This document shows positions 9,836 to 33,989 of a stretch of DNA of 64,000 bases, piece after piece (the first letter of the stretch is position 1; each line of letters opens with the position of its first letter). Both the position numbers and the translations under genes were made by a program. The notes beneath the pieces are model-generated. The model saw only the letters and a program-made list of their open reading frames with translations. It did no database searches and had not been told where the DNA came from. Origin of the DNA: an uncultured Candidatus Rokubacteria bacterium (lineage in GTDB: Bacteria > Methylomirabilota > Methylomirabilia > Rokubacteriales > DASRDR01); contig CAWDVE010000010.1 in assembly GCA_963805625.1 (NCBI GenBank), positions 320,001-384,000 on the forward strand. The letters run 5' to 3'.

Positions 9836-10858
9836 GTGACCGTGTCGAGCCTGGACATCCTGTTCCTCTCCAAGGAAGACGTCGATGCCGTCGACCTCGG
9901 TCTCGGGGAGGCGATGGATGCCATCGAGCTCGGACTCCGGGCACACGGCGAGAAGAAGGTCGTCATGCCCTCGAAGGATCACCTCGCCCTGGACCGATCG
10001 GAGCGCCACTGGAACATTCTCAAGGGGTACGTCGAGCCGATCGACGTGGCCGGGGTCAAGGTGATCGGCGACTTCGAGGGGAATTACCGCTTCGGGCTGC
10101 CGTCGGAGCTGGCGCTGATCACGCTGTATCGGTCGGACACCGGCGCGCCGTTCGCGATCCTGGACGGGACGCTCATCACCTGGATGCGCACCGGAGCGGT
10201 GACGGCGGTCGGCGCCAAGCACCTGGCGCCGGACCGGCCACGAGTGCTCGGGCACATCGGCGCCCGCGGCACCGCCTGGTACAACATCCCGATGCTCGAC
10301 CGGCTGTTCGGCTTCGAAGAGATCCGCGTCACCAGCAAGCGCCCGGAATCCCGGGAGCGCTTCGCCGCCCGGATGTCGGAGCGGCTCGGGAAGCCCGTGG
10401 CGGTCATGGCGACGGTCGAGGAGACGGTACGGGACGCCGATATCATCATCGATGCCTCGCGTCTGGTCACCCCGGAGGTCCTTGTCAAGGACGCCTGGGT
10501 CAAGCCGGGCGCCCTGATCCAGCCCTATGGGGTGGAGCAGTCCGTCGAGTCGACCCTGCCGCTGACGGTCGACAAGATGGTCGTCGACGACTGGAACCAG
10601 TGCCAGAAGTCCGAGTATGGCCAGTTCGCGGGGATGATCCGGGCCGGCGCCCTGCGTGGCGAGCACATCTACGGCGAGATCGGTGAGATCGTGGCAGGGC
10701 TCAAGTCGGGCCGAGAGTCGCCGCGAGAGCGCATCCTGTTCTGGCACAAGGGCTTCGCGATCAGCGACATCGTGCTCGGCCACCTGACCTACGAGAAGGC
10801 GCGGGCCAAGGGCATCGGCACCGTGCTGAGCTACTATCGTCGCCCCCGCGACATGTGA
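9836..10858 (+). CDS. ornithine cyclodeaminase/mu-crystallin family protein
   Basis: DGTLITWMRTGAVTAVGAKHLA, Rossmann IGARG, GFAISD C-terminal motif. Confidence 0.9.
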   Translation: MTVSSLDILFLSKEDVDAVDLGLGEAMDAIELGLRAHGEKKVVMPSKDHLALDRSERHWNILKGYVEPIDVAGVKVIGDFEGNYRFGLPSELALITLYRSDTGAPFAILDGTLITWMRTGAVTAVGAKHLAPDRPRVLGHIGARGTAWYNIPMLDRLFGFEEIRVTSKRPESRERFAARMSERLGKPVAVMATVEETVRDADIIIDASRLVTPEVLVKDAWVKPGALIQPYGVEQSVESTLPLTVDKMVVDDWNQCQKSEYGQFAGMIRAGALRGEHIYGEIGEIVAGLKSGRESPRERILFWHKGFAISDIVLGHLTYEKARAKGIGTVLSYYRRPRDM

Positions 10859-10941
10859 CGGAGCCGCGTGTCCGGCGCCATGCCGGACCCAGCGGCGAAG
10901 GGGTGCTAGAATTCAGGTCGACCGACCTCGTCCGTCCGCGT

Positions 10942-10976
10942 GCCCCCGTAGCTCAGTCGGATAGAGGGTTTCCTAA
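10942..10976 (+). pseudogene. displaced 5' half of tRNA-Arg(CCT) with 4-nt deletion (att junction)
   Basis: GCCCCCGTAGCTCAGTCGGATAGAG-GGTTTCCTAA equals 14252-14290 minus 4 nt; identity stops at the anticodon loop; TGCTAGAAT extended -10 upstream. Confidence 0.9.
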
Positions 10977-11245
10977 TACGCGGCCAGCCGCTAGGCTTTC
11001 CACGATTTCCACGACAGCATCGGGAAAACGTGGACTTGCGCCGTGTCAGAGACGGACTAGCGTGTCTCTTGCTCTTGCGCCCCCGAGTCTCACCAAAACG
11101 AGCGCGTGATGGCACATAGAATGGCATCGCGGGCTAGGGTGGCGGCTGATCCCCGCCACCGAACGCGCGGCATCCCGACCGCGCTGCCCGCGAGTGACTT
11201 CAGGACGCTCGAATGCCTTTGATTAAGCGGGCCCCCAAGTGGGCT

Positions 11246-11806
11246 TTAGGCGTTTTGCCGTCTGCGGCGCAGCAAGGTCCCCAATCCCGCTATCCCCAAT
11301 CCGACCAAGACGAGGGAAGCCGGTTCCGGAACCTGCTCCACATCGGATTGTACCGACACGCTGTATCCGAAAGCGCGCAGTTCGGCGGGCAGGTATTGGG
11401 TCACGTCCTGCAATTCTCCGGTTTCCGGAATGCGCGGTACGTCTGGGCCCAGGCCGAGCCCTGGCCCGCCTTCCGAATCGGAGATAAAGAGAAGCGAATA
11501 CACTGGGGATCCCGACGCGTGCTGCAGGTCAAGCACGTCGCTATCTTCACCCGTGCCGGGCTCGGTGAGTGCGACCAGAAAGCTTTCGGGCGGAATGGCT
11601 GTGCTGGCTGGCCCAGCCAAGCCCGAGGCGAGAATCAATTCCAACCCCCCTCCCGTTTCCGCTGTAGTTTCATCGAAAATAACGACGTCATTGAGGAGTA
11701 TGACCATCCGATCCGATGTCCCTGCGGGCAATGGAGTAGCTGATGCGAGTGTTGTCAGGCTGCCCCAAACCGAACATACGAGCACGGCGCTCATCACGGA
11801 CTTCAT
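11246..11806 (-). CDS. PEP-CTERM protein
   Basis: GGGAGG RBS, signal peptide, C-terminal VPEPASLVLVGLGIAGLGTLLRRRR. Confidence 0.9.
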   Translation of the reverse strand: MKSVMSAVLVCSVWGSLTTLASATPLPAGTSDRMVILLNDVVIFDETTAETGGGLELILASGLAGPASTAIPPESFLVALTEPGTGEDSDVLDLQHASGSPVYSLLFISDSEGGPGLGLGPDVPRIPETGELQDVTQYLPAELRAFGYSVSVQSDVEQVPEPASLVLVGLGIAGLGTLLRRRRQNA

Positions 11807-11899
11807 GATGTCGTCCTCCCTCTGTCGCTTCCCACGGAGTTTCGCCTCAACCCGGCGAGGACGCGGGCTCCAACGTCGAGTCCCTCCCCCGGCACGATG

Positions 11900-12045
11900 A
11901 TCGATGCCAACAATGTGACCCGCTGCGCGACGAAGCGCCAAGCGAGCCCAACGATCCCGGCGGCGAGGAGCAGGAGCGTAGCGGGTTCCGGGACGGCCTG
12001 GGGCTCTCCGTAGAAGAAGTCATCCATCACGACGAGATCGACCGG
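11900..12045 (-). pseudogene. C-terminal remnant of a PEP-CTERM protein
   Basis: DLVVMDDFFYGEPQAVPEPATLLLLAAGIVGLAWR with no signal peptide or body. Confidence 0.75.
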
Positions 12046-12262
12046 GAGACAGTCATGAGAGGGACAACCTCCCAACTCGCATCCTTCACGCTCGCTCTTG
12101 GCCTCCTGATCCTGCCTTGCTCGGCTGAGGCGCTACAAGTGTTCACCGACACCCGGATTCCTAGCGAGCGACATCCAGGACACCATCAGTCGCTCGGGCT
12201 TACGTCCGGCGCATCCTACGCCCTCGAGACCCACGCCCCGAAACCCGTAGTCATCGGGGAGG

Positions 12263-12279
12263 AGCACTTGTCGTGCCAA
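12263..12279 (-). promoter_or_regulatory. sigma54 (-24/-12) promoter
   Basis: TTGGCACG-ACAA-GTGCT facing the PEP-CTERM genes. Confidence 0.6.
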
Positions 12280-12536
12280 TGAACCTAGGTGTCGAAAGAT
12301 CATTAGATTCCGCAGCTTCGGTCGAGGAGCCGTCGAGAGCTTTGAAGACGGACTGCACACCCCAGTGTGCACCCCGGCCGCTCTCCGGTCGGGTAGGACC
12401 CCGAGATCCCTTTCGATTCGGAGAGATGCCAGTGCTGCACAGTAGGCAGTGCAGGGTGCACTGTGGACTGTGCAGGTTGCGGGGCCGAAGACTCTCGTCA
12501 CGGTGTTCCATGAATGTGCGGTAGGAAAAAAAGTAG

Positions 12537-13844
12537 GGCTCTTCCGGCTTTCGTGTGGGTGACGAAGTCTCCGGGCTATGCTCTGCCCTGCCGAGGGGAG
12601 GGGCGGAGCGATGCGCGACACGGAGCTGTACCGAGCGATCTTGGGGCTGACGCCGCCCTGGACGGTGGGGGGCGTCGAGCTGAACATGCCGGAGGGGCAG
12701 GTGGTCGTCCGGGTGGAGGCCGGGCCGGGCCCGTTTGTCTGCCCGGAGTGCGGGAGTGCGGCGGAGCGCTACGACAGTCGGCCACGGCGGTGGCGGCACC
12801 TCGACACCTGTCAGTTGACGACGTGGATCGAAGCGGACGTGCCCCGGATCGACTGCGCGACCCATGGGGTGAAGCAGATCCGGGTGCCATGGGCGGAGCC
12901 GGGGTCGCAGTTCACGGTGTTGTTCGAACGGCTGGCGATTGATCTGCTGTGGGAGTGCTCGGTGACGGGGGCGAAGCGGGTGCTGCGCATCAGCTGGGAC
13001 GAAGCGTGGGGCATCAAGACCCGCGCCGTGCGGCGGGGGCTGGCTCGGCGCCAGGCCGAGGTCGTGCCCCATCTGGGCGTGGACGAGAAGGCCATCGCCA
13101 AGCGGCACCGGTATCTTACGGTGGTCGCCGATCTCGAGCGCAACCGGGTGCTCTATCTGGCCGACGACCGCAAGCAGGAGAGTCTGGACGGCTTCTGGGC
13201 CACCCTCACGGCCGCGCAAGTGGCGGGGATCGAGGCCATGGCGATGGACATGTGGGAGCCCTACGTCCAGTCCACGCGGGCGCACCTGCCGGACGCGGAC
13301 CGGAAGATCGTCTTCGACAAGTTTCATGTGGTCAAGCATCTCCACGACGCCGTCGACCAGGTGCGGCGGGGCGAGCATCGGGCGTTGAAGCGGACGGGTG
13401 ACGACCGTCTCACCGGGTCCAAGTACCTCTGGCTGATGCGGCCCAAGGACATGACGCCGGACCAGCAGACGGCGTTCCGGCTGTTGCAGCGGCAGGATCT
13501 CAAGGTGGCGCGGGCATGGCTGCTCAAGGAGCGCTTCGCCGCCTTCTGGGACTACACCTACCCCGGGGCCGCCGAGACGTTCACCGCCCGCTGGTACTGG
13601 CGCGCCACGCACAGTCGGCTCAAGCCCATGGCGGGCGTGGCCAAGCTAATCAAACGTCATCTCCCGAACCTGCTCACGTACCTCACGCACAAGATCACCA
13701 ATGCAGGCCTGGAAGCCGTCAACTCCGTCATCCAAGGCGTCAAGAAGACCGCCCGTGGGTTCCGCAACCCGGAGCACTTCAAGATCGCCATCTACTTCCG
13801 GTGCGGTGGGCTCGACCTCTACCCACACGAAAGCCGGTAGAGCC
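12537..13844 (+). mobile_element. ISL3-family insertion sequence, complete
   Basis: 24-bp IRs GGCTCT(T/A)CCGGCTTTCGTGTGGGT with 1 mismatch; 8-bp TSD AAAAGTAG at 12529-12536 and 13845-13852. Confidence 0.95.
12611..13840 (+). CDS. ISL3 transposase
   Basis: CPEC zinc finger, RRWRHLD, GVDEK, MDMW, FDKFHV, TNAGLEAVN. Confidence 0.95.
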   Translation: MRDTELYRAILGLTPPWTVGGVELNMPEGQVVVRVEAGPGPFVCPECGSAAERYDSRPRRWRHLDTCQLTTWIEADVPRIDCATHGVKQIRVPWAEPGSQFTVLFERLAIDLLWECSVTGAKRVLRISWDEAWGIKTRAVRRGLARRQAEVVPHLGVDEKAIAKRHRYLTVVADLERNRVLYLADDRKQESLDGFWATLTAAQVAGIEAMAMDMWEPYVQSTRAHLPDADRKIVFDKFHVVKHLHDAVDQVRRGEHRALKRTGDDRLTGSKYLWLMRPKDMTPDQQTAFRLLQRQDLKVARAWLLKERFAAFWDYTYPGAAETFTARWYWRATHSRLKPMAGVAKLIKRHLPNLLTYLTHKITNAGLEAVNSVIQGVKKTARGFRNPEHFKIAIYFRCGGLDLYPHESR

Positions 13845-13949
13845 AAAAGTAGTTACGGTAGTCGATGGCGACAATCCGTCGCCGACTGTAAAGACGACAA
13901 ATACCAGGAGGCGCTGGATGGCCACTTGACCTCCTCGACAGGCAGCATC

Positions 13950-14150
13950 GCCCAGATCTGGCTGCACTGAACGAACTTCGGAATGGCATTGCATTCATTC
14001 CACAGAACCGAAGGCGCAAACCTGATTGGAAGGGTCATAGCGTCTTCACAGAGGACGGCCCTGGTCAGTTTCTGGATGACATGGAGAAGCTGTCGGATGT
14101 CTTCGTCGAACGATTCTGGGGAGGCTCTCCGGAAGACACGGGCGAAAGGC
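13950..14150 (+). pseudogene. possible HEPN-like protein fragment
   Basis: Reads DLAALNELRNGIAFIPQNRRRKPDWKG (RNxxA with the His missing); no start codon. Confidence 0.3.
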
Positions 14151-14214
14151 CTGATGTCATCGCGCCAGAAGGCGGTGTCGATGGCACACAGAATGGCACG
14201 AAGCGGTCCGTCGG

Positions 14215-14243
14215 TTGACAGGCGTCGCGTAACCTATGACAAT
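14215..14243 (+). promoter_or_regulatory. sigma70 promoter of the intact tRNA-Arg
   Basis: TTGACA-N17-GACAAT ending 9 nt before the tRNA. Confidence 0.75.
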
Positions 14244-14251
14244 CATTGCGC

Positions 14252-14328
14252 GCCCCCGTAGCTCAGTCGGATAGAGCAAGGGTTTCCTAAACCCTGGGCC
14301 GGGTGTTCGATTCACCCCGGGGGCACCA
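14252..14328 (+). tRNA. tRNA-Arg(CCT)
   Basis: GCCCCCG/CGGGGGC acceptor stem, AGGGT-TTCCTAA-ACCCT anticodon arm, TTCGATT T-loop, CCA end. Confidence 0.96.
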
Positions 14329-15498
14329 ATATTCTCGCATAGTTGTCGAACGCTCGCCGAAACGGTCGCCACCGCAGTGTCACTCACGGTGTCACTGCAA
14401 GCAGTGGGGGGTGCCTCCTGGTCGCGAGTAGTTGGGGCGGGACTGCCTACCAGACGCTCGACGCCTTCCCGGAGCCTCCCCGGGCTGAGGTGGGCGTAGC
14501 GCATGCCCATCGCGAGCGTTTTCCAGCCTCCCAGCTCCTTGATGGTCAGGAGGTCCACGCCTGCCATCGCCAGTCGTGAGGCGAAGGTGTGGCGCAGGCA
14601 ATGCCAGGAGAAACCGTCGAGCATCTCCGCGTCCCCCTGCCGGCCCGCCTCGGCAAGCGCGTGACACGCCTTGGCGACCGCGCGGGGGAACCACCGATCC
14701 GCCTTCTGGGGCGGGTCCATATTGTCCGCGCCCCGGAATACGTGCTCGTTCCCCTCGGGAAGGCGCCGGGTGGCCATGTCCATGAGAATCTCGCGGACGC
14801 GACGGTTCATCGGCACGTGCCGAGTGCCACCATGCTTGCTTCGAGGAATCGTGAGAGTGCCCGTCATGAAGTCACAGTCGCGCCAGCGGAGCCCCATCTG
14901 CTCAGACCAGCGGAGCCCTGTGTGAATGGAAACCTCGACCATCTCCCGACGCCGGGCATCCGGCACAGCGTCAAGGAGAGATCGCTCGGCCTCCGCGGAA
15001 GGAAGGTACTTGAGGCGGCCATTATTCTCCCGAGGGAAGCGCGTGCCGACAACGGGGTTACTCGTCGCTTTGCCGTTCCGAATCGCCACGTTGAAGCAGC
15101 ATCGGAGTGCGGCTAGGTAGCGAACTACGGTAGCCGGCTCGTATCTTAGCTTGGACTCATGGCGGCCCGGCGTGCGCTGTGGGTCACGACGTTCCATCAG
15201 CGCCAGCTTGCCCTGCTCCACGTCCTGGCGAGTAATGGAAGCCACGGGACGGTCGCCCCATCGATCCTTCCAGTAGAGGATGCGGACGCAGTCATTGTGC
15301 GGCGGCCGGTTGTGCGCCTTCTGGTATCCCACGTACTCCTGAACGACTTCTGAGAAAAGGACAATGCGTTGCCGCTTCGTGGCGGTTGGGCAGAATTGCT
15401 CCGTTCGAGCAAGGGTCCGGCGCTTCTCCACCTCCTGCTGCGCCACGGACTTGGCGCCGACCAGCTCTCGGTGCTTGTGCCCGAGGGAGCAGTACCAA

Positions 15499-16220
15499 TG
15501 CGCATACCGGCGAAGCTGAACACCCAGATCGGCCCATCGTGAACGCGCCGGTCGGGGATCGTGATCGGAGCGGAGCGACGCTGGCCGGCCGATCAGCTGT
15601 CGAGCTTGCCCTCCTTTCTCCGTGAGGGACCTTTTAGCACGAGTCGGTGCGCGTTGTGCAGGAGCCGATCGCAGATGGCGTCAGCCAGCGTGGGCTCCCC
15701 GATGTGATCGTGCCACTGGGCCGGGGGGAGCTGGCTCGTGACGATCGTGGAGCGGCTGCCATAGCGATCTTCCAGAATCTCGAGCAGGTCGCGGCGTTCC
15801 TGGTCCTGTGGCGGGGCCAGGCCCCAGTCGTCGACGAGAAGGACGTCCATGCGCGCGAGCTTGCCGAGGAGCCGGCCGTAGGTCCCGTCGGCGCGCGCCA
15901 CGCGGAGATCATCGAACAGGCGGGAGGCCCGGCGGTAGTAGGCGCGATAGCCGCGGCGGCAGGCCTGGTGGGCGAGGGCGCAGGCGATGAAACTCTTGCC
16001 GGTGCCGGTGGCGCCGGTGACGAGGACCTGCTGGTGCTCGGCGATCCAGCGGCAGGTGGCGAGCTGGCGGATCACGGCCTTGTCGAGCTCCCGGCGGGCG
16101 GGATAGTCGATGGCCTCGATAGAGGCCTGCGGCAGCTTGAGCTTGGCTTCCTGGAGGGCGCGGGTCAGGCGCTTGTTCTCCCGCGCCAGCCACTCGGCGT
16201 CGACCAGCAGCCCGAGACGC
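15499..16220 (-). mobile_element. istB: IS21-family remnant (one end plus 5'-truncated istB)
   Basis: TGCGCATACCGGCGAAGCTGAACA terminus; IstB GATGTGKS, LLVDDWG, ADAICDRLLHNA (15593-~16220); istA absent. Confidence 0.85.
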
Positions 16221-16469
16221 TGGCTCCGTTGGAGTACGGCAGTGTCGCGTGAGTGGGACGCCGCCGCGTGTCCGAGGCACCAATGCAGCTAGGTCAGCGG
16301 CCCCCGCCCGCCGGAATCACCTACGCTGAGGCGATCACCCCGGCCGATTGAAACGTCCTACAATTAATAAGTTAGCACGGGTTCCCCCGATTGTCAACCG
16401 GCGTTCTACCAGGCTCCGGGTGCCCCTACGCAGCCCCCGCGCGTCCGGGGTGTCGTGAATCAACAGGCG

Positions 16470-16660
16470 ACGTGACATTGGACGGCGGACGGAGCCTGTA
16501 GGCGCCCCGCCGAGCAGTGAACCGGGCTCGAACGCCCGTGGAGCCCGTCTGGCGCCCGGTGTCGGCCTTGGGGTAGACGGGGCGGCCGGCGGCGTCGAGC
16601 CAGACCGGGGGGACCATGCCGCCGACCCAAGAAGGCGACGCCCCGCGCGGGGCAGGGCGT
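16470..16660 (+). mobile_element. probable IS110-family non-coding end remnant (no transposase)
   Basis: GACGGAGCC..CGCCC..AGCAGTG..GGGCTCGAACGCCCG..GCGGCCGG pattern recalled from IS110 leaders; followed by GGGGGA RBS and ATG 16616 with a truncated ORF. Confidence 0.4.
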
Positions 16661-16685
16661 CGTGGTCGTCTCGGGATCGAGCGGG

Positions 16686-17324
16686 TCAGTCGCGACGCCG
16701 CCAGCCGAGGCCCAGCCCCAGCAGTCCGAGGCCGAGCAGCGTGAGCGTACCGGGTTCGGGGACACCCTGAGCGTCGGAGAAGTCGACCTGCTTCACTTCC
16801 TTGAAGCCCGACTCGAGGAAGATCTGCACTTCCTTGATGGTCTCATCAAGGGACACGATGCCGATCCGCGTAAAATCCGCGTTCGCGTTCTGCCCAAAGA
16901 AGGTGAAGATCTGCGGAGGATTCCCCTGGTTGTCCGTCACCGTGACCGTGATCGGGTTCGATTGGGTGACATCCTCATTGGGTTGGCCGCGGAACGAAAA
17001 GTCCCCGAACTGGTTCGGATTCTCCGGTGTGAACGTCAGGGTCGTGAGCACGTCGTCGTTGTTGTCTGGCTTGATGTTGGCGTACCCGTTGCCCGTCTGG
17101 ACGCCCACGTCAGCTGTGACGTCGACCTCGAGGTTGTTGAGCGCGGCCGTGCACGCTTGATTCGCGCTGACGACGCCACAGAAGCTCGTCGAGCCGTTCG
17201 TCGGCTTGTCGATGAAGAATTTGTCCCCGCCCGGATCCGGATCGACGATGAAGGTGGCCTGGGCCGGGCTGGCCAGCAGGGCGGCCAGGACGACGACTGA
17301 CGCCGCGACTAGGGTACGGATCAT
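16686..17324 (-). CDS. PEP-CTERM protein
   Basis: Signal peptide ending SPAQA; C-terminal VPEPGTLTLLGLGLLGLGLGWRRRD. Confidence 0.92.
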   Translation of the reverse strand: MIRTLVAASVVVLAALLASPAQATFIVDPDPGGDKFFIDKPTNGSTSFCGVVSANQACTAALNNLEVDVTADVGVQTGNGYANIKPDNNDDVLTTLTFTPENPNQFGDFSFRGQPNEDVTQSNPITVTVTDNQGNPPQIFTFFGQNANADFTRIGIVSLDETIKEVQIFLESGFKEVKQVDFSDAQGVPEPGTLTLLGLGLLGLGLGWRRRD

Positions 17325-17388
17325 TGAAGCCCTCCGTTTGTTCGGCGGATTCATGCGCGTCTGAATAGCTAGCACAAAAGTGAAAGAG

Positions 17389-17405
17389 AGCAGATTTCGC
17401 GCCAA
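17389..17405 (-). promoter_or_regulatory. sigma54 promoter
   Basis: TTGGCGCG-AAAT-CTGCT 65 nt upstream of the PEP-CTERM start. Confidence 0.7.
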
Positions 17406-17531
17406 TCTAGTTACGCTCCCAAAATCGGGGAGTTAGCCCCGCGTGATCTCCAGAGTGTAAAGTAAGTTGGCAGTCGGCAATTTTGCCCTTCTGTAAGTAC
17501 CGAAGAACATGAGCTTCTCGACAAGCCACGG

Positions 17532-17548
17532 TGTCGACATTCTTTACA
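17532..17548. promoter_or_regulatory. TGT-N11-ACA enhancer-binding-protein site
   Basis: TGTCGACATTCTTTACA about 127 bp upstream of the sigma54 site; similar site at 23116. Confidence 0.6.
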
Positions 17549-17779
17549 TGTTCGCACTTGGGGTCCCCCGACCGCTGGACGTGCGAGCCCCTCTCTTGAT
17601 CGACGGCCGCTGCAAGGAGCTTAACGACCCCGATGGTAGTCTCAGCGCGACACTGGAGACGCAAGGCACGATCCTACGCGGCAAGCTCTGGAAGGCGCGA
17701 TGACGAGGTTGGAACCCAACAAGCCGCGCGTTGAAGTCGGCTCCCACACAACCCACGGATGGGACCCAACGTCGGCCGG

Positions 17780-17828
17780 GGGACCCTCTCACTCGAATTT
17801 GAACGGGTGTGTACGCGCACTCGTGCCC
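17780..17828 (+). repeat. 49-bp direct repeat, copy 1
   Basis: GGGACCCTCTCACTCGAATTTGAACGGGTGTGTACGCGCACTCGTGCCC; 2 mismatches to 18974-19022. Confidence 0.9.
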
Positions 17829-18073
17829 AGCCGGGTCCCCCTCCCGGCCCACGCTGGTCTCCGATTGGGAAAGGAGGCCCCATATGAGGCATCGCCCGGC
17901 TGACAGTCCCGGCCACCCTCGACCTGGCCCTGCTTGCCGCGCCGCTCGCCATCGGGCTCAACAGGCGGCGGATAGACTATGCAAGTTCCTTCATCTTGAC
18001 AGCGCTGGCGACCAGACGTAGTGTCGGCCCGCTTCCTCGAACGTCCGGCCCTCGCCGGTAAGGAGAGAGGGAT

Positions 18074-18727
18074 ATGCTCAACGACCTGTTCCCGGGACAA
18101 CGCTTCACTACCCGAGGCGGGCGTGGCAACCGGCACGGGCGTCTGTGCGTAATTGCAGCGGTTCTAGCGCTCGTCTGGGGGGTCAGCGCGCCCGCCGCGA
18201 CAGCCGCGATCATCGAGCACGTCTTCACGGGTGACATCCTCGTAAACGACGGATTGCCAGGCGTGTCGGTCGGGGACCCTTTCACTGCCACCTTGACCTA
18301 CGATGACTCGCAGTCCCCCTTTTTCGTCTCGCCAGTGGAGGCGGACTACGCGGAATTCACCTTCGAAGTCACCGTTGGTGCTTTCATTTTCTCTCAGCCC
18401 CAACCGCCCATCGTGGCTCTGGTGGTCTTCAACTTTCCCGGAGTGGACAGGTTCGAAACAGGCCCGGGCTCGGGGCCAGTCTTTCGGTTGGTTGATGATT
18501 CTGGAAGCGCCCTCAGTTCCACTGCCCTCCCAACTACTTTGGACATCGCAGACTACTCCTCTGGGCCCAATTTCCTCATAGTCCCCCCCTTTCTTACAGG
18601 CGAGATTACGTCAATCTCGTCGAGGGTCGTGGGCCAACCTGTAGCGGAACCAGCTACCCTCGTTCTTCTCGCCCCCGGTCTCGCCGGACTCGGCGCGCTG
18701 CGCTGGAGGAGACAGCGCCGACAGTAG
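18074..18727 (+). CDS. PEP-CTERM protein (VAEP variant)
   Basis: Signal peptide; C-terminal VAEPATLVLLAPGLAGLGALRWRRQRR; TTGACA-N17-TAGTGT at 17996-18024. Confidence 0.88.
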   Translation: MLNDLFPGQRFTTRGGRGNRHGRLCVIAAVLALVWGVSAPAATAAIIEHVFTGDILVNDGLPGVSVGDPFTATLTYDDSQSPFFVSPVEADYAEFTFEVTVGAFIFSQPQPPIVALVVFNFPGVDRFETGPGSGPVFRLVDDSGSALSSTALPTTLDIADYSSGPNFLIVPPFLTGEITSISSRVVGQPVAEPATLVLLAPGLAGLGALRWRRQRRQ

Positions 18728-18818
18728 AGTCGCCGGAGCCTTGCGGAGCTTTCCACGGGCGTCGAGTATCCCTCGGCGCCCGTAGTGTTATCACGACGCC
18801 CCGCCGCTAGGGGTGTAG

Positions 18819-18901
18819 GTCATCACATGAAAATCGCCAAGGCCCTCGGCCTGACGATTCCGCCGTCGGTGCTGGCTCGGGCGGATCAGGTCATAGAGTG
18901 A
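18819..18901 (+). pseudogene. 3' remnant of ABC substrate-binding protein
   Basis: [24 protein letters not shown]-stop. Confidence 0.75.
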
Positions 18902-18973
18902 GCGGCAGGTTCTCAAAACCCGGGAGTTGCGCCCTTTTCCACCAGATTCGGGACACCACCACGGCCGAGCCGC

Positions 18974-19022
18974 GGGACCCTCACACGCGAATTTGAACGG
19001 GTGTGTACGCGCACTCGTGCCC
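18974..19022 (+). repeat. 49-bp direct repeat, copy 2
   Basis: Matches 17780-17828. Confidence 0.9.
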
Positions 19023-19260
19023 TGCTGTGCCCCCGCCATCGCGAGCCGCGGGTGCCCTACCCATGGGTCCCCCTTCGTGGGGGAGGGGGGGGTGCCGGAG
19101 CGGGCTAGTTGCGGGCTAGTTGCGAGTCGCGCCGGGTCGCATCCGGTTCCGTTCGGGGGCAGTGGCGCGCGCCGTTGTGTGCGGTGCAAGTGCCGGCACA
19201 AGTGTCCCCCGTGTACACTGACGACGACCAGCGCCCCTGAGTGCGCCACCCTTGGTGGGT

Positions 19261-19305
19261 CTACGAATCCGAAGGTCGCAGGTTCGAATCCTGCTGGGCG
19301 TACCA
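19261..19305 (+). pseudogene. 3' half of tRNA-Arg(ACG) (att remnant)
   Basis: CTACGAA anticodon loop through GGTTCGAATCC to ACCA; no 5' half; followed by a hairpin at 19308-19337 and a T-run. Confidence 0.85.
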
Positions 19306-19490
19306 AGAAATCGGAGGAGTTACAGCTCCTCGGATTTTTGGGTTTGGCTAAAAGCAAGCACCAGGTAAGCGGTCAGCACCTCCAGTGCACAGGGGAGCTA
19401 GGGTTCCGTCCCGGCGGTCTCGCACGTCGGGCGCGGAGCCGGGCCAGCGGTTTCCCAAGTTATCGGAAGTCGTCCTGATGCTGCCCGTCC

Positions 19491-20150
19491 CTAATCGTCC
19501 GAGGATCGCGTCGGACGCCACCACCAAGAACGGAACGAGCCCAGCGCAGCCAGCCCTGTGCCTAACAGGAGGAAGGTGGAGGGCTCTGGGACTCGGGTCC
19601 ACTTCGCGAACGTTCCGTTGAGGTCCTCGCTTGAGTCGTAGGTGGTGTCTGGAGGTACGCCTGACACGGGGAAGCAACATTCGCCTCTTAGTAGGGCTTC
19701 ATCCTGTGGAATGCTCGGAGTAGTGTTTAGAGCTTGAGCCACTAGGACGAAACCATTCTCGATATCGTAAGGCGTAGTGACCCAACAATTAAACTCAAAA
19801 AAACAGCCAAACGTTAACGCTGGGTCGCTGTCGAAATTCCCTGAACCAGGATCATCAACGAGGACTTGATCAAGCAAGGCTTGTGACGCTGCGAGGGCGT
19901 CGCTGGCTGAAGTGAACGGGAAATGCGCCTGGTCGCATGCGCCGAACACCGCCGCACACGTCCCTTCGGCGAACTCAACATCGTAGCGAATGCCTTGCAC
20001 GGACACTCCGGTGGCACCCCTCAAGATCCCGTTCCCGTCCACGACCAAGACGGGCGCACCCTGCGCGGGTATAGGGACCCCAAAGAAAACGACGACGAGG
20101 GCCACGACCAACGGAGGCATGAAACCCATAATGCGTCCCCCTTTCATCAT
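19491..20150 (-). CDS. PEP-CTERM protein
   Basis: Signal peptide ending PAQG; C-terminal VPEPSTFLLLGTGLAALG; locally lower GC; start could be 20129. Confidence 0.88.
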   Translation of the reverse strand: MMKGGRIMGFMPPLVVALVVVFFGVPIPAQGAPVLVVDGNGILRGATGVSVQGIRYDVEFAEGTCAAVFGACDQAHFPFTSASDALAASQALLDQVLVDDPGSGNFDSDPALTFGCFFEFNCWVTTPYDIENGFVLVAQALNTTPSIPQDEALLRGECCFPVSGVPPDTTYDSSEDLNGTFAKWTRVPEPSTFLLLGTGLAALGSFRSWWWRPTRSSDD

Positions 20151-20771
20151 GTTTGGCCATCGTAGTTGGATGCCACGCGGATAGCAGACAGGTTATTCCG
20201 CACGTAAAAACTAGGAAGACTCCAGCGGACCATGAGCGTCGCCTCCCAGACTGGAACAGCGGTGAGCCGAACCTAGCGCAGATCGCGTAAGGCGTCAATG
20301 AAACGGCAGCATCACGGAAACGGCAGTGCCAAACTTGCAATTCCTTGCAGGTTGGCCGCCCAGGAGGGCGGTAGAGTGAATATCCCTTGCCGGGGTTCCG
20401 AGGCGTCATCATCGCAGCCCGACGAGGCAGCCAACCGCGCCTGCTGCGGTCCTGCTCGGCGAGGGGTCGCCACGATTCGCGCCAGAGAGAGCGAGTTGGC
20501 GAGTGGAGCGATGAGGGAAGGGGCCGCACACCGCCCTCCGCGCCGGCGAAAAGCGCACCGCCTACGCGCCGCTGTGGCCCCCAGGATCGCGTTTGAGAGT
20601 AGGACCGCTGGTGTCAGTCCCGGTGTCAGTGACCCATCGTCACAGGGTCGTCTCGGTCGCGCTCCCTTCTAGTTGGCGGCGAGCGAATCGCCGCTCTGGA
20701 CATGGCGATTCGTATTACCGCGTACGACGGAGCGATATGGCGTCAGACGGGCAGGGAAGGGCTTGGGCGGA

Positions 20772-20816
20772 TTCCTAAACCCTGGGCCGGGTGTTCGATT
20801 CACCCCGGGGGCACCA
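20772..20816 (+). repeat. tRNA-Arg(CCT) 3'-half duplicate (att junction of elements 2 and 3)
   Basis: Identical to 14284-14328. Confidence 0.95.
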
Positions 20817-20903
20817 ATTTTTACAAGGGGTTGCGGAGCACCATTTCGACGGTTGACCGGCGAGTGTCGCTACAAGTGTCGCTTATCGAGGAGGCGCCGG
20901 CGG

Positions 20904-21770
20904 ATGGAGCGCACGTTCTCTGAGCGCATGGGCTACGGCTCACCCCGCACGATCCAGACCGACGGGATGGATGATCCGCTCCGGTCTTCGCTGTGGAACG
21001 TGATCGCGGGCCTTGTCGATAGCCCCTTCGGCCCCTTCGGGGGCAATGGGAAGTGGTTCGAGGTAGCGCGGCTGATCGCTCGTGAGGTCCTGCGTGTTCC
21101 AATCGACGGCGTGCCTGGGTGGACCGGGGGTGGCGAGTGGCAGGCTCGTGGATGGCTACTCGAGAAGTATCTCTTGCTTGAGTGGTACATGGTGTACGAC
21201 ATCCTTGAAGTCATCGCCCGTAGTGTGCCTGCCCCGAGCCCCACGCAGTTTGAGAAGTCCGCGAACAGCGCACTGGTGCGGGAACTTTCGGCCTTTCGAT
21301 TCGTTGGTGGCCGCCTGACGCGCCTGACAGGCGCCGTCGAGGTCAAGGCCATCGAGGAGGCTAGCCAGGCGGCCACCGGTGCCGGCCTGGATGGTGTCCG
21401 CGAACACCTCGACGAGGCACTCCGTCAACTCGGGCGGCGCCCGGAGCCCGATTATCGGAACGCGATCAAGGAGGCGATCAGCGCGGTCGAGTCCGCCGTC
21501 AGCGCGATGGCGAGCCTCAGGAAGCCTGATCTCGACGAGGCAATCGGGGTACTTCAGGGGAAGGGCCTGATCCACGGCGCGATGGCCGCCGCCTTCACGA
21601 AGCTGTACGGGTACACCAGCGATGCGGGCGGCATCCGGCACGCGCTGCTTGAGGAGGGCGCACCGGTCGGTTTCGACGAGGCGAAGTTCATGGTGGTCGC
21701 GTGTTCGGCCTTCTGCCACTTGCTCATCGCGAAAGCAGACGCCGCCGGACTGCTCAAGAAGCGGAGCTAG
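20904..21770 (+). CDS. AbiJ-NTD4/HEPN-like putative defence protein
   Basis: GAGGAGG RBS; FSERMGY..IQTDGMDDPLRSSLWN N-terminus; C-terminal PDYRNAIKEAISAVES..KLYGYTSDAGGIRHA. Confidence 0.75.
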   Translation: MERTFSERMGYGSPRTIQTDGMDDPLRSSLWNVIAGLVDSPFGPFGGNGKWFEVARLIAREVLRVPIDGVPGWTGGGEWQARGWLLEKYLLLEWYMVYDILEVIARSVPAPSPTQFEKSANSALVRELSAFRFVGGRLTRLTGAVEVKAIEEASQAATGAGLDGVREHLDEALRQLGRRPEPDYRNAIKEAISAVESAVSAMASLRKPDLDEAIGVLQGKGLIHGAMAAAFTKLYGYTSDAGGIRHALLEEGAPVGFDEAKFMVVACSAFCHLLIAKADAAGLLKKRS

Positions 21771-21776
21771 ACTGCC

Positions 21777-22958
21777 TTAGCGCAGGTCCTGCGCTCTACG
21801 CTGGGCCGTTCCCTCCCGCGCCGCGATCCGCGCCGCCGCCGCCCGCAGGTCTTCGGGCGCCACGATGTGGTAGCGGTCGAACACCGAGCGCGTCTCGTGG
21901 CCGGTGATCGTCATGGCCACCTTCTCCGGGGTTCCGTCGTTCACCAGGTTGCGGACCGCCGTCCGCCGGAAGTCGTGGCGCAGCATCCCCGGGCACCCGG
22001 CCCGTTTGCAGGCGGTCCGCCAGGCCCGGCGGAAGTCCCGCACGCGGTCGCCGGCCACGTAACGGCGCTGGCCAGTCTTCGGGTTGAGCGGACCATCGGT
22101 CGCGTGCGCGAACACCCACGGGACGATGCGCCCGAGCGTTCGCTCCAGCGCCCGCACGCGGGTCAGGTGCTCGGCGACGGCGGTCGCCAGGGTCGGGGTC
22201 AGGTACACGACGCGCCTGTCGTCGTTTTTGGTCGTGCCGGGGTCGAGGCGCACGGTGCCGGCCTCCAGGTCGACGTGGCGGCGCGCCAGCGTCAGGACCT
22301 CGTCGCGCACGCGCCAGCCGTAGGTGTAGGCGAGGTCCACCGCGAGCTGGAGGTCCGGGCGGAGGCGCCGGCGCACGGCCGCGAACCGGTCGGCCTCGAA
22401 AAACCCGGCGCGCGGCGCGGCTTCCTTGAGGAGCGTGATCGGCGGCGGGTGCAGCACCTTCCGCCGGCGCGCGGCCAACCGGAGCATCGTGCCCAGCAGG
22501 GACAGCTCGCGGTTGATGGTCCCGTTCGCGAGCGGGCGGCCCCGGCGGCTCACGGTCGCCTGTCGCGCCGCGACGTAGCGCGTGATCGCGGCCTCGTCGA
22601 GATCGACCGCGCGCCAGCCGGTGAAGAAGGCGGTGAGGGGCCGGAGCCGCTTCGCGACATCCGCCGCCGCGCGCTTCCCGGTCGTCTGGTAGTGGAGTGT
22701 CAGATCGGTGGCTAAGTCATCGTACCGGATCTTGTCGATGCGCGGAGGGAGCGGGCGCCCCTCGGCAGCGTGGCCGAGGCGCGTCTGGAGAAACGTCGCG
22801 GCCTCGCTCTTGCGCGTGGTGCCGGTGCTCTCCCATCGCCGGCGGCCGTTAACGACGTACTGCACCCACCAGACGGCGCCGCGCTGGTAGAGGTGGCCGG
22901 TCCCGCGTCGCGCGCGCGGGCGCTGCGGGGGTAGGGAGGGGGATACGGTGCTCATCAT
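21777..22958 (-). CDS. tyrosine integrase (intact)
   Basis: Arm-binding N-terminus GHLYQRGAVWWVQY; GWR, TKN, HDFRR, TGH, DRY. Confidence 0.93.
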   Translation of the reverse strand: MMSTVSPSLPPQRPRARRGTGHLYQRGAVWWVQYVVNGRRRWESTGTTRKSEAATFLQTRLGHAAEGRPLPPRIDKIRYDDLATDLTLHYQTTGKRAAADVAKRLRPLTAFFTGWRAVDLDEAAITRYVAARQATVSRRGRPLANGTINRELSLLGTMLRLAARRRKVLHPPPITLLKEAAPRAGFFEADRFAAVRRRLRPDLQLAVDLAYTYGWRVRDEVLTLARRHVDLEAGTVRLDPGTTKNDDRRVVYLTPTLATAVAEHLTRVRALERTLGRIVPWVFAHATDGPLNPKTGQRRYVAGDRVRDFRRAWRTACKRAGCPGMLRHDFRRTAVRNLVNDGTPEKVAMTITGHETRSVFDRYHIVAPEDLRAAAARIAAREGTAQRRAQDLR

Positions 22959-23115
22959 GCGGTCCTCCTATTGGTTGCCTTGCGGGCGTCGAGGGCGGCG
23001 ATCATGGCGTCTCCTTGTCACGAGACGTTGGGGCATAGGTTGCGGCGGTTATAGTGCGACCGCACGACTCGAGTGAGGACTCTCGCCGAGGGCTTGCATG
23101 CTTCGCCTCTTCCAG

Positions 23116-23132
23116 TGTCGTAAACCTTTACA
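23116..23132. promoter_or_regulatory. TGT-N11-ACA enhancer site upstream of PEP-CTERM gene
   Basis: TGTCGTAAACCTTTACA; 15/20 identical with 17531-17550 including flanks. Confidence 0.6.
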
Positions 23133-23259
23133 TGACCCGGACTCGATGGTTTGGCACTCTAACAAACACAGCCACTTGCGGGCCAGTACAGGATATGCAT
23201 ACCGCCTCTGCACGTGTCTCGCTCCCTGCTCCTAAACCCTTAGCCCGGAGGACCCGACA

Positions 23260-24021
23260 ATGCGGCTACGCTCCGCAGCAGTGTGTCGCCTCGCAGTGCT
23301 TCTCTTGGTAGCGAGCGCGAGCGCCCTGCCTGGCCAGGCGGTCGCCGGGACGGTGTTTGGCCTCGACGACTTCAACGGCGGGCTTCTCCCCAACTGGTCC
23401 TCCGGGAGTTTTGCGCTGGGTGTCGATACGACGCCGAGCGGGGAGAACTTCTTGGGGATCGCCGGCGACAGCAGCAACTTTGGTCTCAGCAGCGGCTCGG
23501 TCACCCTTACGGTCCCGACAGCCGACCCCCATACCTCGGTAACGCTCACGTTCCGGGAGTACGTGATCCGGAGCATGGACGGGGACGAGCCATTCAGCGT
23601 TAGCGCCGACGGCACCGACCTGATCAATCCAGACGCGACGTTCAGCAACCTGGGATCGAGTAGCTGCACTGACAACACGACTGCCGGATGTACCAACATC
23701 AAGGCCATTAACGCGCCTGCGGGGACGGTGGGTCCGACTGTCGGGGCCCTCCTGTTCCCCCCCCTCAACAGCGGCGCGGTTGGCGACACGTTTTACGACC
23801 TGACGTTGACGTTTCCACATACCGCGGCAAACCTCTCGATCATATTCTCGTATAATGGCCAGCAGGGCCTCTTCGACGAGAGCTGGGGCCTCGACAGGGT
23901 AACGGTTGCGACCAACTCCAACCCGACCACGTCGGTGCCGGAACCGGCGACCCTCACTCTGCTGGGCACCGGCCTGATTGCCACTGCGGCCCTGACCAAG
24001 CGCCGAGCACGCCGCCGCTAA
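23260..24021 (+). CDS. PEP-CTERM protein
   Basis: GGAGGA RBS, signal peptide, C-terminal VPEPATLTLLGTGLIATAALTKRRARRR. Confidence 0.92.
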   Translation: MRLRSAAVCRLAVLLLVASASALPGQAVAGTVFGLDDFNGGLLPNWSSGSFALGVDTTPSGENFLGIAGDSSNFGLSSGSVTLTVPTADPHTSVTLTFREYVIRSMDGDEPFSVSADGTDLINPDATFSNLGSSSCTDNTTAGCTNIKAINAPAGTVGPTVGALLFPPLNSGAVGDTFYDLTLTFPHTAANLSIIFSYNGQQGLFDESWGLDRVTVATNSNPTTSVPEPATLTLLGTGLIATAALTKRRARRR

Positions 24022-24304
24022 CGGCAGCGTTTCTGACCCGGCTCCTTCGAGGCCTGGGATGGCCTGCGAGTCGCGCCGCCGGCGCTGTCCGCCGCGCCGG
24101 CGTCGCTGTCCGCATACGCCCCAGACCTCCTGATCCTTTTCGCTCCGACGCACTTCGCGCCGTCGCAGCTCTGCAAACGACGCCGTCCTAAAACCCAGCG
24201 CCTACACCTGATAGGCCGAATCATCCTCCACCGCTCCTGCCTCCACAGGCTCGGAGTGATGGGCCAGCCTCCGGCGGTGGTCGCCGCGCGGGGCCGTCTC
24301 TTGT

Positions 24305-25033
24305 CTATTCCGAGGCTAGCCCGGAAATACGGTTCCAGGTGCGCAAGGTCGTCACGATGGACGCCTGCTCCACCGCCTCGGCGGCGACGTAGCGCGCCCA
24401 CGCCGTCGGCTCGATCTCCGCCCGGATGGCCGCCTCGACGCGCGTCCGCAGCGCGTTCGGGTCCATGGCGTCCAACTCCCAGCCCCGGTCGCCGTAGTGC
24501 TCGACGAACCGGCATAGCGCGGGTCGTCCTCTTTGTCCGACGCCGGGAAGCTCACCCGCGGGCCGAGGGTCCGCGTGTCCTCGACGGTCAGCGCGAGCCG
24601 CCGGAAGATGATGCCCCCGAGCGCGAGATAGCTGTCCGCCACGTCGTCCGACCACGCCCGCGACTCGGCCCGCGTGACGGCATACCGCCCCCGCATCGCG
24701 TGAAAGGCCAGGCGCCGGGGCAGATCCTGCTGGCTCATGCCCATCCCGCTCGGATCGTAGTCGCCGAGGTAGCAGATTACGAGCGGCCGCTCAGGCGACG
24801 CCAACTGCGCAAGCTCGTAGACGCGCGTCGTGCTGCCATAGCCCCCGACCGGGAGGAAATCGACCTCGTAGGTGTCGAGCACCGGGGCCAGCGTCCCGCG
24901 CACCGTGCCCTTCTCTGCGACGATGATGAGGTCCCGCGCCTGCCCGGCCCACTTGTTCCGGCGATAGGACGCCTGAACGGCTCGCGCGAAGGCCGCGGGG
25001 TCGTCCCAGGTGGCGACCCGTTCGATAGCGCGC
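24305..25033 (-). pseudogene. Toprim-domain (TopoVI-A/JetD C-terminal-like) protein, truncated and frameshifted
   Basis: IIVAEKGTV, GGYGS, YLGDYDPSG, WELDAMDP motifs; 5' end cut by an IS. Confidence 0.7.
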
Positions 25034-26283
25034 TGTCCCTTCCATTTAGTCGATCCAGGTACCTTGGGACCGGCTGCGGCCCGTGGTCATGGGCCTCTGA
25101 TACGACGGACACGCAGCGTGGACCTCCTTGGCTTCGCGCGGAGTCACCGAGGGTGGGTTCCAGTGCACCGAGGCGCACGCACCGACCGGCGCCGTCGATG
25201 TAGGCGGAACGGCCCGCAGACAGGAGCTTACGCCGCTCGCCGACCGTAGCGATGATGGAGGCCGCCGACCATCGGCGTCTCGACGATGCGGCCTTCGTCG
25301 AGTCGCTCCACCGGTCTTGGCTCCGGGGCGTCCTTCTCCAGGGAGAGGTGGGTGCGGGCCCCGTGGTAGTAGATGAGGTACGCGCTGAGCAGGCGGCGCA
25401 GGTGGGTTTTGTTCAGCACCACAACGTGGTCGAGGCACTCGCGGCGGAGGGTGCCGATGAGCCGTTCCACGTAGGGATTCTGCCAAGGGGATCGAGGCGC
25501 CGTCTTGACTTCATGGATCCCCATGGTCTGGACGCGGCTCGAGAACGCGCCCCCGTACACCGCATCGCGATCGCGCAGGAGGTAGCGCGGCGCAGTCTCC
25601 CAGGGGAAGACCTCCACGAGTTGCTGCGCCGTCCACTGGGCCGTGGGGGCGTCGGTGACGTTGATGTGAAGGACGCGCCGCCGCTCGTGCGCCAGGACCA
25701 CGAAGACGAACAGGACCTTGAACATCACGGTGGGGACGACGAAGAAGTCGACGGAGACGAGGGTCTGAAGGTGGTTCTCGAGAAAGGTTCGCCAGGTCTG
25801 CGATGGCGGCTTCCGATGGCGGACGACGTACTTGGACACTGTTGCCTGGGAAATCTCGATGCCCAGCTTCTGGAGCTCTCCGTGAATCCGCGGCGCGCCC
25901 CAGATGGGATTCGCCGTGGACATCCGTCGGATGAGCGCTCGAACCTCCAGGGCGACGGCTGGGCGGCCTGGTCCGTTCCGGCGGCTCTTCCAGGTCCAGA
26001 CGAGCTTGAAGCCGGTCCGCTGCCACCGGATCACCGTCGCGGGTTGGACGACGGAGATGGCATCCATCCAGCCGCTCCACATACGGGACAGCAGGACCCA
26101 CAACAGGCGGTCGGCCGTCCGCAGGCGTGGGCGCCGCGCGGTGCGCTGGAGGACGGCCAGTTGGTGCCGTAACGCGAGGTTCTCGAACACCAAGGAGCGC
26201 TGGGTCCTGACACCACGGAGGAGACCGATGAGGATGAGGGTGGTTCAACGTTGACGAGGCGGATGGAGTAAATAGAAGGCACA
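25034..26283 (-). mobile_element. IS481-like rve-transposase element
   Basis: Imperfect 23-bp IRs (TGTCCCTTCCATTTAGTCGATCC vs TGTGCCTTCTATTTACTCCATCC, 19/23); no TSD; both neighbours truncated. Confidence 0.7.
25228..26193 (-). CDS. integrase-core (rve/DDE) transposase
   Basis: WGAPRIHGEL, SVDFF, LLRDRD, SPWQNPYVERLIGTLRRECLDH. Confidence 0.9.
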   Translation of the reverse strand: MVFENLALRHQLAVLQRTARRPRLRTADRLLWVLLSRMWSGWMDAISVVQPATVIRWQRTGFKLVWTWKSRRNGPGRPAVALEVRALIRRMSTANPIWGAPRIHGELQKLGIEISQATVSKYVVRHRKPPSQTWRTFLENHLQTLVSVDFFVVPTVMFKVLFVFVVLAHERRRVLHINVTDAPTAQWTAQQLVEVFPWETAPRYLLRDRDAVYGGAFSSRVQTMGIHEVKTAPRSPWQNPYVERLIGTLRRECLDHVVVLNKTHLRRLLSAYLIYYHGARTHLSLEKDAPEPRPVERLDEGRIVETPMVGGLHHRYGRRAA

Positions 26284-26354
26284 GGCTCGAAGCGGTCGGC
26301 GGCACGTCGTTCCGCCCGGCCGGAGCGCAGGGCAAGACGACCGCGGCGTTCGAG

Positions 26355-26735
26355 GTGACCCGGTCCGACGCCGAGTGGCGCCAGCGCCTCACGCCGCAAC
26401 AGTTCCACGTGCTCCGGCAGCACGGCACCGAGCGGCCGGGAAGCAGCCCCCTCGACAAGGAGTACGGGAAGGGGACCTACCACTGCGCGGGCTGCGACCT
26501 CCCGCTCTTCTCGTCGGAGATGAAGTTTGACAGCGGCACCGGCTGGCCGAGCTTTTGGGCGCCCATCGACAACGCCGTCGGGACGGCGTCGGATCGGAGT
26601 CTCTTCATGGTCCGGACGGAGGTCCACTGCCGGCGGTGTGGCGGGCACCTCGGGCACGTGTTCGAGGACGGGCCCAGGCCGACCGGACTCCGCTATTGCA
26701 TGAATGGCGTCGCGCTGGCGTTCAGGAGGGCCTGA
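26355..26735 (+). CDS. msrB: peptide-methionine (R)-S-oxide reductase (N-terminus possibly lost)
   Basis: GTERP, CxxC, KFDSGTGWPSF, GHLGHVFEDGP..RYCMNG. Confidence 0.9.
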   Translation: MTRSDAEWRQRLTPQQFHVLRQHGTERPGSSPLDKEYGKGTYHCAGCDLPLFSSEMKFDSGTGWPSFWAPIDNAVGTASDRSLFMVRTEVHCRRCGGHLGHVFEDGPRPTGLRYCMNGVALAFRRA

Positions 26736-27253
26736 TCCATGCGATCCGTGGTGTGAGAAAGCTGCACCGCCCGTGGTTGGCGAAGCGGTCGCGCGCCCGG
26801 CGACCGTGGGACGAGGGACACGTTGCCGGTCCGCCGGGACCCCGAACCCCGGCCGACGTCGGGGGAGTTCACGGGCCGGATCGTGGAATGGGACGCCGTG
26901 ACCCAGCGCGGCCGTATCCGGGCCGGCGCCTGGCTGTATCACTTCGCCCTGCCCTACTGGAGTGGCGAGCTCCCCGTCCCGCTCGGGGTCGAGGTCACCT
27001 TCCAGGCGACCGCTGCCGGCGAGGCGCGGGATCTGAGATGGCCGACCGCGGCGCCAGCCGTAGTCGGTGGTTTTGACGAGCCGGGCGAGATTGCGACTTT
27101 GGACGCTCCTCGCCCAACCTGTCCATCTCCTTGCACCAACAGGTGAAGTGATACCAGTGACTCTGCCAATCCAGCAGGATGGGTCCCGGCTCATCGGTGA
27201 GGCTTTTCGAGCAGGCGTGGCAGCCTCGTCCGATCATGGTGCGCCCGGGGCCG

Positions 27254-27850: not shown

Positions 27851-27865
27851 TCTAGGGACCGCTGT

Positions 27866-28604: not shown

Positions 28605-28608
28605 AGCA

Positions 28609-33846: not shown

Positions 33847-33892
33847 TTTCCTAAACCCTGGGCCGGGTGTTCGATTCACCCCGGGGGCACCA
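33847..33892 (+). repeat. tRNA-Arg(CCT) 3'-half duplicate (att junction)
   Basis: Identical to 14283-14328. Confidence 0.95.
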
Positions 33893-33989
33893 TTTTTCCG
33901 ATACTTAGCGACGGTCCCGCCGAGGACCCCGCATGCCGGCGCCACTTCTGGTGCCACTTGCTCCAGGTCCCACCCTAGGCGCGCGTGGT

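Follow-up and report, generated by a model that had tools for sequence, protein, structure and literature searches.

A probable integrase-less relic island that replaced the 5' half of tRNA-Arg(CCT) in a Candidatus Rokubacteria genome

The window analysed here, a stretch of 64,000 nucleotides of contig CAWDVE010000010.1 from an uncultured Candidatus Rokubacteria bacterium (assembly GCA_963805625.1; the genome that holds the window is referred to as G000), contains an intact gene for tRNA-Arg(CCT) and, 3.3 kb upstream, a displaced 5' half of the same tRNA, here called the stub. The segment between them, element A, is very probably what is left, without its integrase, of a tyrosine-integrase island that entered the anticodon loop of tRNA-Arg(CCT) in reverse orientation. 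The stub occupies the native position and the intact gene follows non-native DNA; we also found junctions at the loop sequence TTCCTAA, a mirrored geometry of arm sites and of a TTR motif, and relatives that still bear an integrase. Downstream of the intact tRNA two further elements, B and C, and a remnant, D, are stacked, all of the ordinary 3' type. A first-pass annotation of the sequence had proposed an island that restores the tRNA by supplying its 5' half and a new promoter; it was silent on the tRNA 3' halves at 20772 and 33847, the downstream elements, the missing integrase and the ISL3 insertion sequence (IS) within element A.

The stub (10942-10976) runs exactly to the final base of the TTCCTAA anticodon loop and, as had been noted in the first pass, lacks 4 nt relative to the intact gene (GATAGAG[CAAG]GGT; the repeats D1 and D10 are spaced 3310 versus 3314). 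It lies behind the motif TGCTAGAAT, and the intact tRNA (14252-14328) lies behind TTGACA-N17-GACAAT, again as described; a search for a second tRNA-Arg(CCT) gene found only this one in the 99.9%-complete assembly. The related genomes G013 and G014 have an intact tRNA 85-87 bp after the ornithine cyclodeaminase (OCD) gene behind a near-identical leader (that of G013 differs from the window at 10 of 83 positions), and G009 and G012 have one after the OCD gene behind the same motif with a longer spacing. OCD orthologues with 90-97% identity lie before the tRNA locus in relatives, and the closest relatives of the OCD gene, in the same range, are mostly Candidatus Rokubacteria or Methylomirabilota. 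As the intact tRNA stands behind the native leader in these four genomes, the stub is the native half, in agreement with the position assigned to it earlier, and the promoter at 14215 is not ancestral; had it been, the first-pass reading would have fallen, but the tRNA of G013 and G014 is directly behind a leader of the native type instead. Synteny with G013 is regained only near 46908. A decayed native 3' half was sought in 33900-47500, where the matches were no better than those of shuffled queries.

It is scarcely credible that a mis-join or a consensus error made the stub or its 4-nt deletion. The assembly is 6.3% contaminated and the whole of element A is spanned by no contig among the runs compared, but a contig from run X1 covers 10841-11770 with no differences, crossing the stub junction by about 800 bp, and a contig from run X5, which belongs to another study, covers 10792-10993 with one difference and carries the deletion (X1 may be the source sample, and the X5 contig extends only 27 letters past the deletion). 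The deletion is thus free of gaps in contigs of two studies, contradicting the assembly artefact against which the first pass had cautioned, and the same layout was found again in many relatives.

All four junctions in the window (at 10970, 14284, 20772 and 33847) fall on the 7-bp loop sequence TTCCTAA, so that the crossover in the anticodon loop suggested earlier is borne out. A 19-mer is repeated inside both ends of element A (11108 and 14180), as had also been reported; when the element without its IS was resampled 300 times under a Markov model, no resample matched it, and its pattern occurs nowhere else in the genome. By position and repetition the 19-mers look like putative pairs of integrase arm sites, a label that follows the established attP structure of the lambda type. 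The near and far pairs are 85 and 133 bp from the overlap in A, 87 and 143 bp in B and 85 and 134 bp in C, and the pair of D is at 85 bp; the near pair is on the side of the tRNA half in B, C and D, and the sides are swapped in A. On the minus strand the repeat of A reads GTGCCA, resembling GTGTCA of B and GTGCCA of D, and it shares a ATGGCACA core with the arm repeat of G140. A TTR motif, several copies of which fit the IHF consensus, occurs in 21 of 22 3'-type arms at 49-53 nt from the overlap, and in none of 29 native leaders; on the other strand, it is found at this distance in eight of nine 5' arms of the TTGAC type or of G019 (51 nt in A, where it falls within the promoter spacer).

These junctions bear on a history with no site-specific event, in which the entire tRNA gene was copied or relocated together with a new promoter, while a chance deletion took away the 3' half of the left copy. 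Element A has no integrase and its cargo is small, with only the promoter and one weak 28-nt match in 20 genomes of the family, which would suit such a history; B and C, however, used the very overlap at which the stub stops; across 21 genomes, 25 halves of this kind terminate at this loop or no more than about two bases from it, and the arm pairs are at mirrored offsets. We regard a chance deletion as largely refuted already and as highly improbable.

Element A probably supplies the promoter of the tRNA, as judged from its sequence. The TTGACA-17-GACAAT motif at 14215-14243 is the single sigma-70 match in 10800-14500 (shuffled sequences gave a mean of 0.4 with a standard deviation of 0.6); since this is only modestly above chance, the conservation in relatives carries the weight. 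The same placement of TTGAC is seen at seven loci and in G002:C12, which matches the promoter of A at 90% over 39 nt, and G003 has kept a near-identical promoter with the stub gone. A second element type has an extended -10 like the native one. Consensus and conservation together point to promoter activity at 14215.

Element A measures 3314 bp between the overlaps, the ISL3 element making up 1.3 of the 3.3 kb, and otherwise holds a PEP-CTERM gene, a PEP-CTERM fragment and an unnamed 95-codon frame (13931-14218) that had no match in a Pfam scan. Its G+C content is 60% without the IS, versus 70% upstream. A tblastn search with 37 integrases against 10977-14251 found no integrase remnant (best E 0.086), and a search of G000 for a cognate integrase found nothing with more than 36% identity to the main 5'-type clade. 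A terminator scan behind the stub was negative, and the folding of 10935-11135 was no better than that of shuffles (z -1.4). Given the 3' halves that bound B and C and the failure to find a native 3' half, the working tRNA would be element-built on both sides.

The 5'-type layout recurs across the order. We surveyed 183 genomes with two queries; the genomes are incomplete and related, and the counts are therefore lower bounds to which no significance is attached. 5' halves of tRNA-Arg(CCT) were found in 21 genomes (25 sites) and clear 3' halves in 19 (22 with doubtful ones). Contig-end cuts (G017, G069, G105, G130 and G144), tRNA-Arg(TCT) paralogues (G004:C21 and G013:C13) and a 26-nt match (G037:C223) were excluded from the 5' count; G002, with a truncated stub, and G003, with none, were found by eye and are outside the 21, and G008, which has three copies of the locus, is 7% contaminated. 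Both ends together with a long integrase frame pointing at the tRNA's 5' end are present in G008, G039, G134, G140 and G148. In a tree of the integrases (25 next to this tRNA and 12 others from G000) orientation changes at least three times, and a single origin of the 5'-type integrases was rejected (approximately unbiased test, p 3e-10; 10 of the 37 rows were fragments under half filled). The lost integrase of A most likely belonged to a 5'-only subclade with G008, G055, G134, G140 and G148. The stub, the intact copy, the mirrored arms and the integrase-bearing relatives agree on the 5'-replacing geometry that the first-pass annotation had proposed. Its description of this geometry as the rarer, opposite one is correct in general, but the geometry has been described before and is not rare at this tRNA, where the 5' orientation is common in Rokubacteria-like genomes and about equal to the 3' form.

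The history that we propose is as follows. A tyrosine integrase would have used the inverted anticodon stem as its core sites and the 7-nt loop as the overlap; core sites in this stem would let the attachment site face either way, with only the tRNA half between core and arm being swapped. The attP would have carried a promoter and a tRNA 5' half on one arm, with the promoter squeezed between the arm pair and the tRNA, and integration would have left the native promoter and 5' half as a stub that, freed from selection, then decayed. The integrase and most of the cargo would later have been lost and the IS would have entered. Two 3'-type islands and a third remnant are stacked on the other side of the same loop.

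Five observations weigh against parts of this history. The -10 sequence GACAAT would leave a leader of only a few nucleotides. The TTR motif is at the mirrored spot in only 7 of 24 5'-type arms overall, with 14 of 24 having it at 39-41 nt. As the integrase of A is gone, its clade is assigned only by the likeness of arm and promoter. The native half is damaged, truncated or lost in all seven elements without a long integrase frame versus one of five with such a frame (Fisher p 0.01, for the 12 elements with both ends in view), a contrast that selective lock-in also predicts. Finally, no joint skipping A was present among the joints listed for contigs of eight runs, although contigs drop rare variants and this is no evidence of absence.

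Modelled in silico, a crossover within TTCCTAA yields a 73-nt gene that keeps its acceptor, T and anticodon stems but has no proper D-stem, a product that is likely to be non-functional, although ARAGORN still calls it (111.7 versus 123.3 for the intact tRNA); the earlier claim that excision regenerates a damaged tRNA holds for the D-stem and is tempered by this call. Damage was seen in 11 of 25 5' halves versus 4 of 10 3' halves, a hand count that ignores end-gap artefacts and one last-base change and in which the 3' sample is ten halves; BLAST misses badly decayed halves, so that damage is undercounted on both sides. The lesions of the 11 damaged 5' halves are all different, the 4-nt lesion being found in this genome only. 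Lesions that differ between genomes and are equally frequent in 3' halves form the pattern that decay would give.

The first-pass annotation had gone further and had the island locked in. With the origin unchanged, the damage to the stub would hold the island in place since excision would destroy a needed tRNA, relics would accumulate and the element promoter would become permanent. The missing D-stem of the excision product agrees with this, as do the use of AGG for 5.4% of Arg codons, three times AGA (7840 versus 2629 in 2548 long open reading frames), the seven-of-seven contrast given above, and G003, where the stub is gone and the near-identical promoter remains. Age, however, would produce this pattern as well, and the genomes are related to one another; each lesion is different, and 3' halves are damaged at an equal rate. 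A tRNA-Arg(TCT) gene is present in G000 and by analogy can probably read AGG there, the CCU tRNA being dispensable in E. coli, in which the UCU tRNA also reads AGG (passages of PMC4652775). Without an integrase, moreover, there is little excision to select against. We thus retain the loss of the D-stem on excision and not the special locking mechanism, and consider selective lock-in doubtful and on balance unlikely. The island is immobile mainly for want of an integrase, the loss of which grounded it; the 4-nt deletion is likely to be ordinary decay and would make any precise excision costlier in fitness.

A broader reading of the locus is possible, although we advance it tentatively: in this bacterial order it may be a promoter-turnover ratchet, in which integrases whose orientation flips at the symmetric anticodon stem keep replacing the tRNA promoter and 5' half. 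The native half would decay, excision would be penalised, the element would erode to less than 1 kb and the att-site promoter would become permanent. At least 23 of the 100 intact genes examined lie behind element-type DNA (an integrase tail, an arm pair or a TTGAC-type leader), and the native half has vanished in G003.

Other 5'-type arrangements came to light alongside. Minimal 5' relics of 0.8-1.0 kb were seen in G003 (L044, G003:C8:1547766-1548813), with one cargo gene, an A-like promoter and no stub, and in G015 (L032, G015:C60:14996-15864), with an integrase tail and a small gene pair that by eye resembles a toxin-antitoxin module. G000 has 5' halves also at tRNA-Asp(GTC) (six) and tRNA-Leu(TAA) (one), the other targeted tRNAs having 3' halves. 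The tRNA-Asp(GTC) halves are at G000:C16:7879-78048, C16:579668-579709 and C22:52785-52826, four of them forming a stack upstream of the intact gene. A TTGAC promoter is present in five or six, and each is followed by a conserved hairpin and a T run, terminator-like for an orphaned promoter. A hidden Markov model search for integrases near the C16 stack and the C22 copy gave no match. At tRNA-Leu(TAA) there is a 13-kb 5'-type island (G000:C10:522427-535510) with GGGCACA arm pairs at both ends, the integrase of which (523092-524085) is of the element-C clade and points at the tRNA's 5' end. Displaced tRNA 3' halves are very many across G000 (for example, about 15 for tRNA-Lys(CTT) and more than 10 for tRNA-Glu(CTC)), some of them on contigs other than that of the intact gene.

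Table 1. Features of the tRNA-Arg(CCT) locus and its elements, in window coordinates
Feature	Coordinates	Strand	Remarks
Core gene, OCD/mu-crystallin family	9836..10858	+	Left landmark of native tRNA locus; Pfam PF02423, E 1.5e-53
Native extended -10-type motif TGCTAGAAT	10904..10912	+	Now upstream of stub; same leader before intact tRNA in G013 and G014
Native 5' half (stub) of tRNA-Arg(CCT), displaced	10942..10976	+	4-nt deletion removes 3' strand of D-stem
Left junction (attL-like) of element A	10942..10976; overlap TTCCTAA 10970-10976	+	Sequence, repeats, read contigs
Far arm-site pair of element A (putative), ATGGCAC-type direct repeat	11108..11126	+	133 bp from overlap; role suggested by position, mirroring B and C
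PEP-CTERM protein gene (cargo)	11246..11941	-	Pfam PF07589, E 2.3e-6; true start probably inside open frame
Short second PEP-CTERM-bearing frame (fragment)	11803..12075	-	Pfam PF07589, E 1.7e-7
ISL3 insertion sequence	12537..13844	+	24-bp inverted ends; later insertion; IS-free allele in run X2
ISL3 8-bp target duplication AAAAGTAG	12529-12536 and 13845-13852		
Near arm-site pair of element A (putative)	14180..14199	+	85 bp from right overlap; B, C and D: 87, 85 and 85 bp, other side
Element-borne sigma-70-like predicted promoter TTGACA-N17-GACAAT	14215..14243	+	Spacer holds mirrored TTR of putative IHF-type site
Intact tRNA-Arg(CCT), sole copy	14252..14328	+	Overlap 14284-14290; 5' half apparently supplied by A and 3' half by B
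Tyrosine integrase of element B, pointing at tRNA	14329..15446	-	Pfam PF00589, E 1.3e-25
Element B, ordinary 3'-type	14329-20771		
tRNA-Arg(CCT) 3' half from TTCCTAA, B/C junction	20772..20816	+	
Tyrosine integrase of element C, pointing at tRNA end	21777..22958	-	65% identical to 5'-type integrase of G019
Element C, 3'-type	20817-33846		
tRNA-Arg(CCT) 3' half, right end of element C	33847..33892	+	
Arm-site pair of fourth element remnant (D)	33939..33959	+	

The features of the locus are collected in Table 1. Several cargo genes of PEP-CTERM type are spread over elements A, B and C (11246-24021), confirmed by Pfam at 11246, 11803 and 16686 and with similar tails by eye at 18074, 19491 and 23260. 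A gene with an AbiJ_NTD4 domain (20673-21770), a candidate for anti-phage defence, is flanked by the junction and by the element C integrase, and an IstB (IS21 helper) fragment (15593-16252) is just upstream of the integrase of element B. Inside B, 19261-19305 is a 45-nt tRNA-Arg(ACG) 3' half (98% identical) far from any such gene; it is a captured att end. A tRNA-Arg(GCG) called by ARAGORN at 19082-19155 (score 100.5), adjoining this half, was rejected as a false call. An X1 contig at 14284-14863 runs from the right arm of B through the 3' half into its left arm, as an excised circle would, and in an X12 contig at 14248-14328 the tRNA is followed immediately by the sequence after 33892, with B and C absent; both joins pass through a 45-bp repeat, have low depth and could be chimeric.

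The layout is already known, and element A is a relic member of the 5'-fragment tDNA (tRNA gene) islands. According to passages of the Islander paper (PMC4383910), 5' fragments occur in 159 of 3919 islands and damage in 148; the figure in a survey of Sinorhizobium is 9 of 88 (passages of PMC11476347), and an element with 'reversed target orientation' (Zhao & Williams, 2002, J Bacteriol 184:859) is cited in a passage of PMC6563490. The 5'-fragment islands in the Islander passages, like A, have a 5' fragment upstream of an intact tRNA on the same strand, crossover at the A site and a tandem array; at A we found the same-strand fragment at the native position, with the empty site in relatives, a defined 7-bp subsite and direct repeats on both arms. 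Unlike them, A has no integrase inside the island, which makes it a relic and not an active member, and the Islander filter as those passages describe it would thus reject A taken by itself. The damage of A is in the D-arm of the 5' half, whereas that in the Islander passages is a stereotyped deletion near the discriminator; no deletion recurs among our 11 damaged 5' halves of 25, which differs from stereotyped, integrase-linked att damage. At tRNA-Arg(CCT), moreover, the 5' and 3' forms are about equally common, unlike in the Islander figures.

The tRNA-Cys locus of Anabaena variabilis (passages of bioRxiv 10.64898/2025.12.09.693284) has the same order of 5' half, element, complete single-copy tRNA, element and 3' half, with halves of 38 bp (5') and 45 bp (3') and a site in the anticodon loop; its 5'-side element, the integrase of which is truncated, is considered unable to excise. 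Here the phylum and the tRNA are different, the 5' half itself has a deletion and the 3' side has two further elements in its stack. Grounded prophages and att-damaged islands (passages of PMC6379469) are, like A, immobile through recombinase loss and a change in the att site; unlike in those cases, no phage genes were seen in A and the excision product would be impaired, not only the att site. In tRNA-dependent lysogeny (passages of PMC10865867) the function of a host tRNA likewise depends on element DNA, including an element promoter, but a whole phage tRNA complements in trans and none is rebuilt at a junction, whereas here the rebuilt tRNA spans the right overlap and is the only CCT gene. 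A search of an open-access library gave no paper on tRNA-integrase genomic islands in Rokubacteria, which does not imply absence from print.

Taken singly, element A is instructive as an instance of a minority layout that has been described before, and the added value is in the comparative set. One tRNA target is used in both orientations about equally, by integrases that on opposite sides are up to 65% identical, and with an attachment-site architecture mirrored within a few bases; with this natural pair in opposite orientations, the orientation flip of an integrase system becomes directly testable. Such relics escape island finders that require the presence of an integrase or of a 3' fragment. 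The locus suggests that the promoter of a housekeeping RNA gene can end up being provided by mobile-element DNA, on which the gene then depends, and the locus-wide picture, with both orientations equal, recent flips and what may be permanent capture of a promoter, is the part that merits the attention of specialists.

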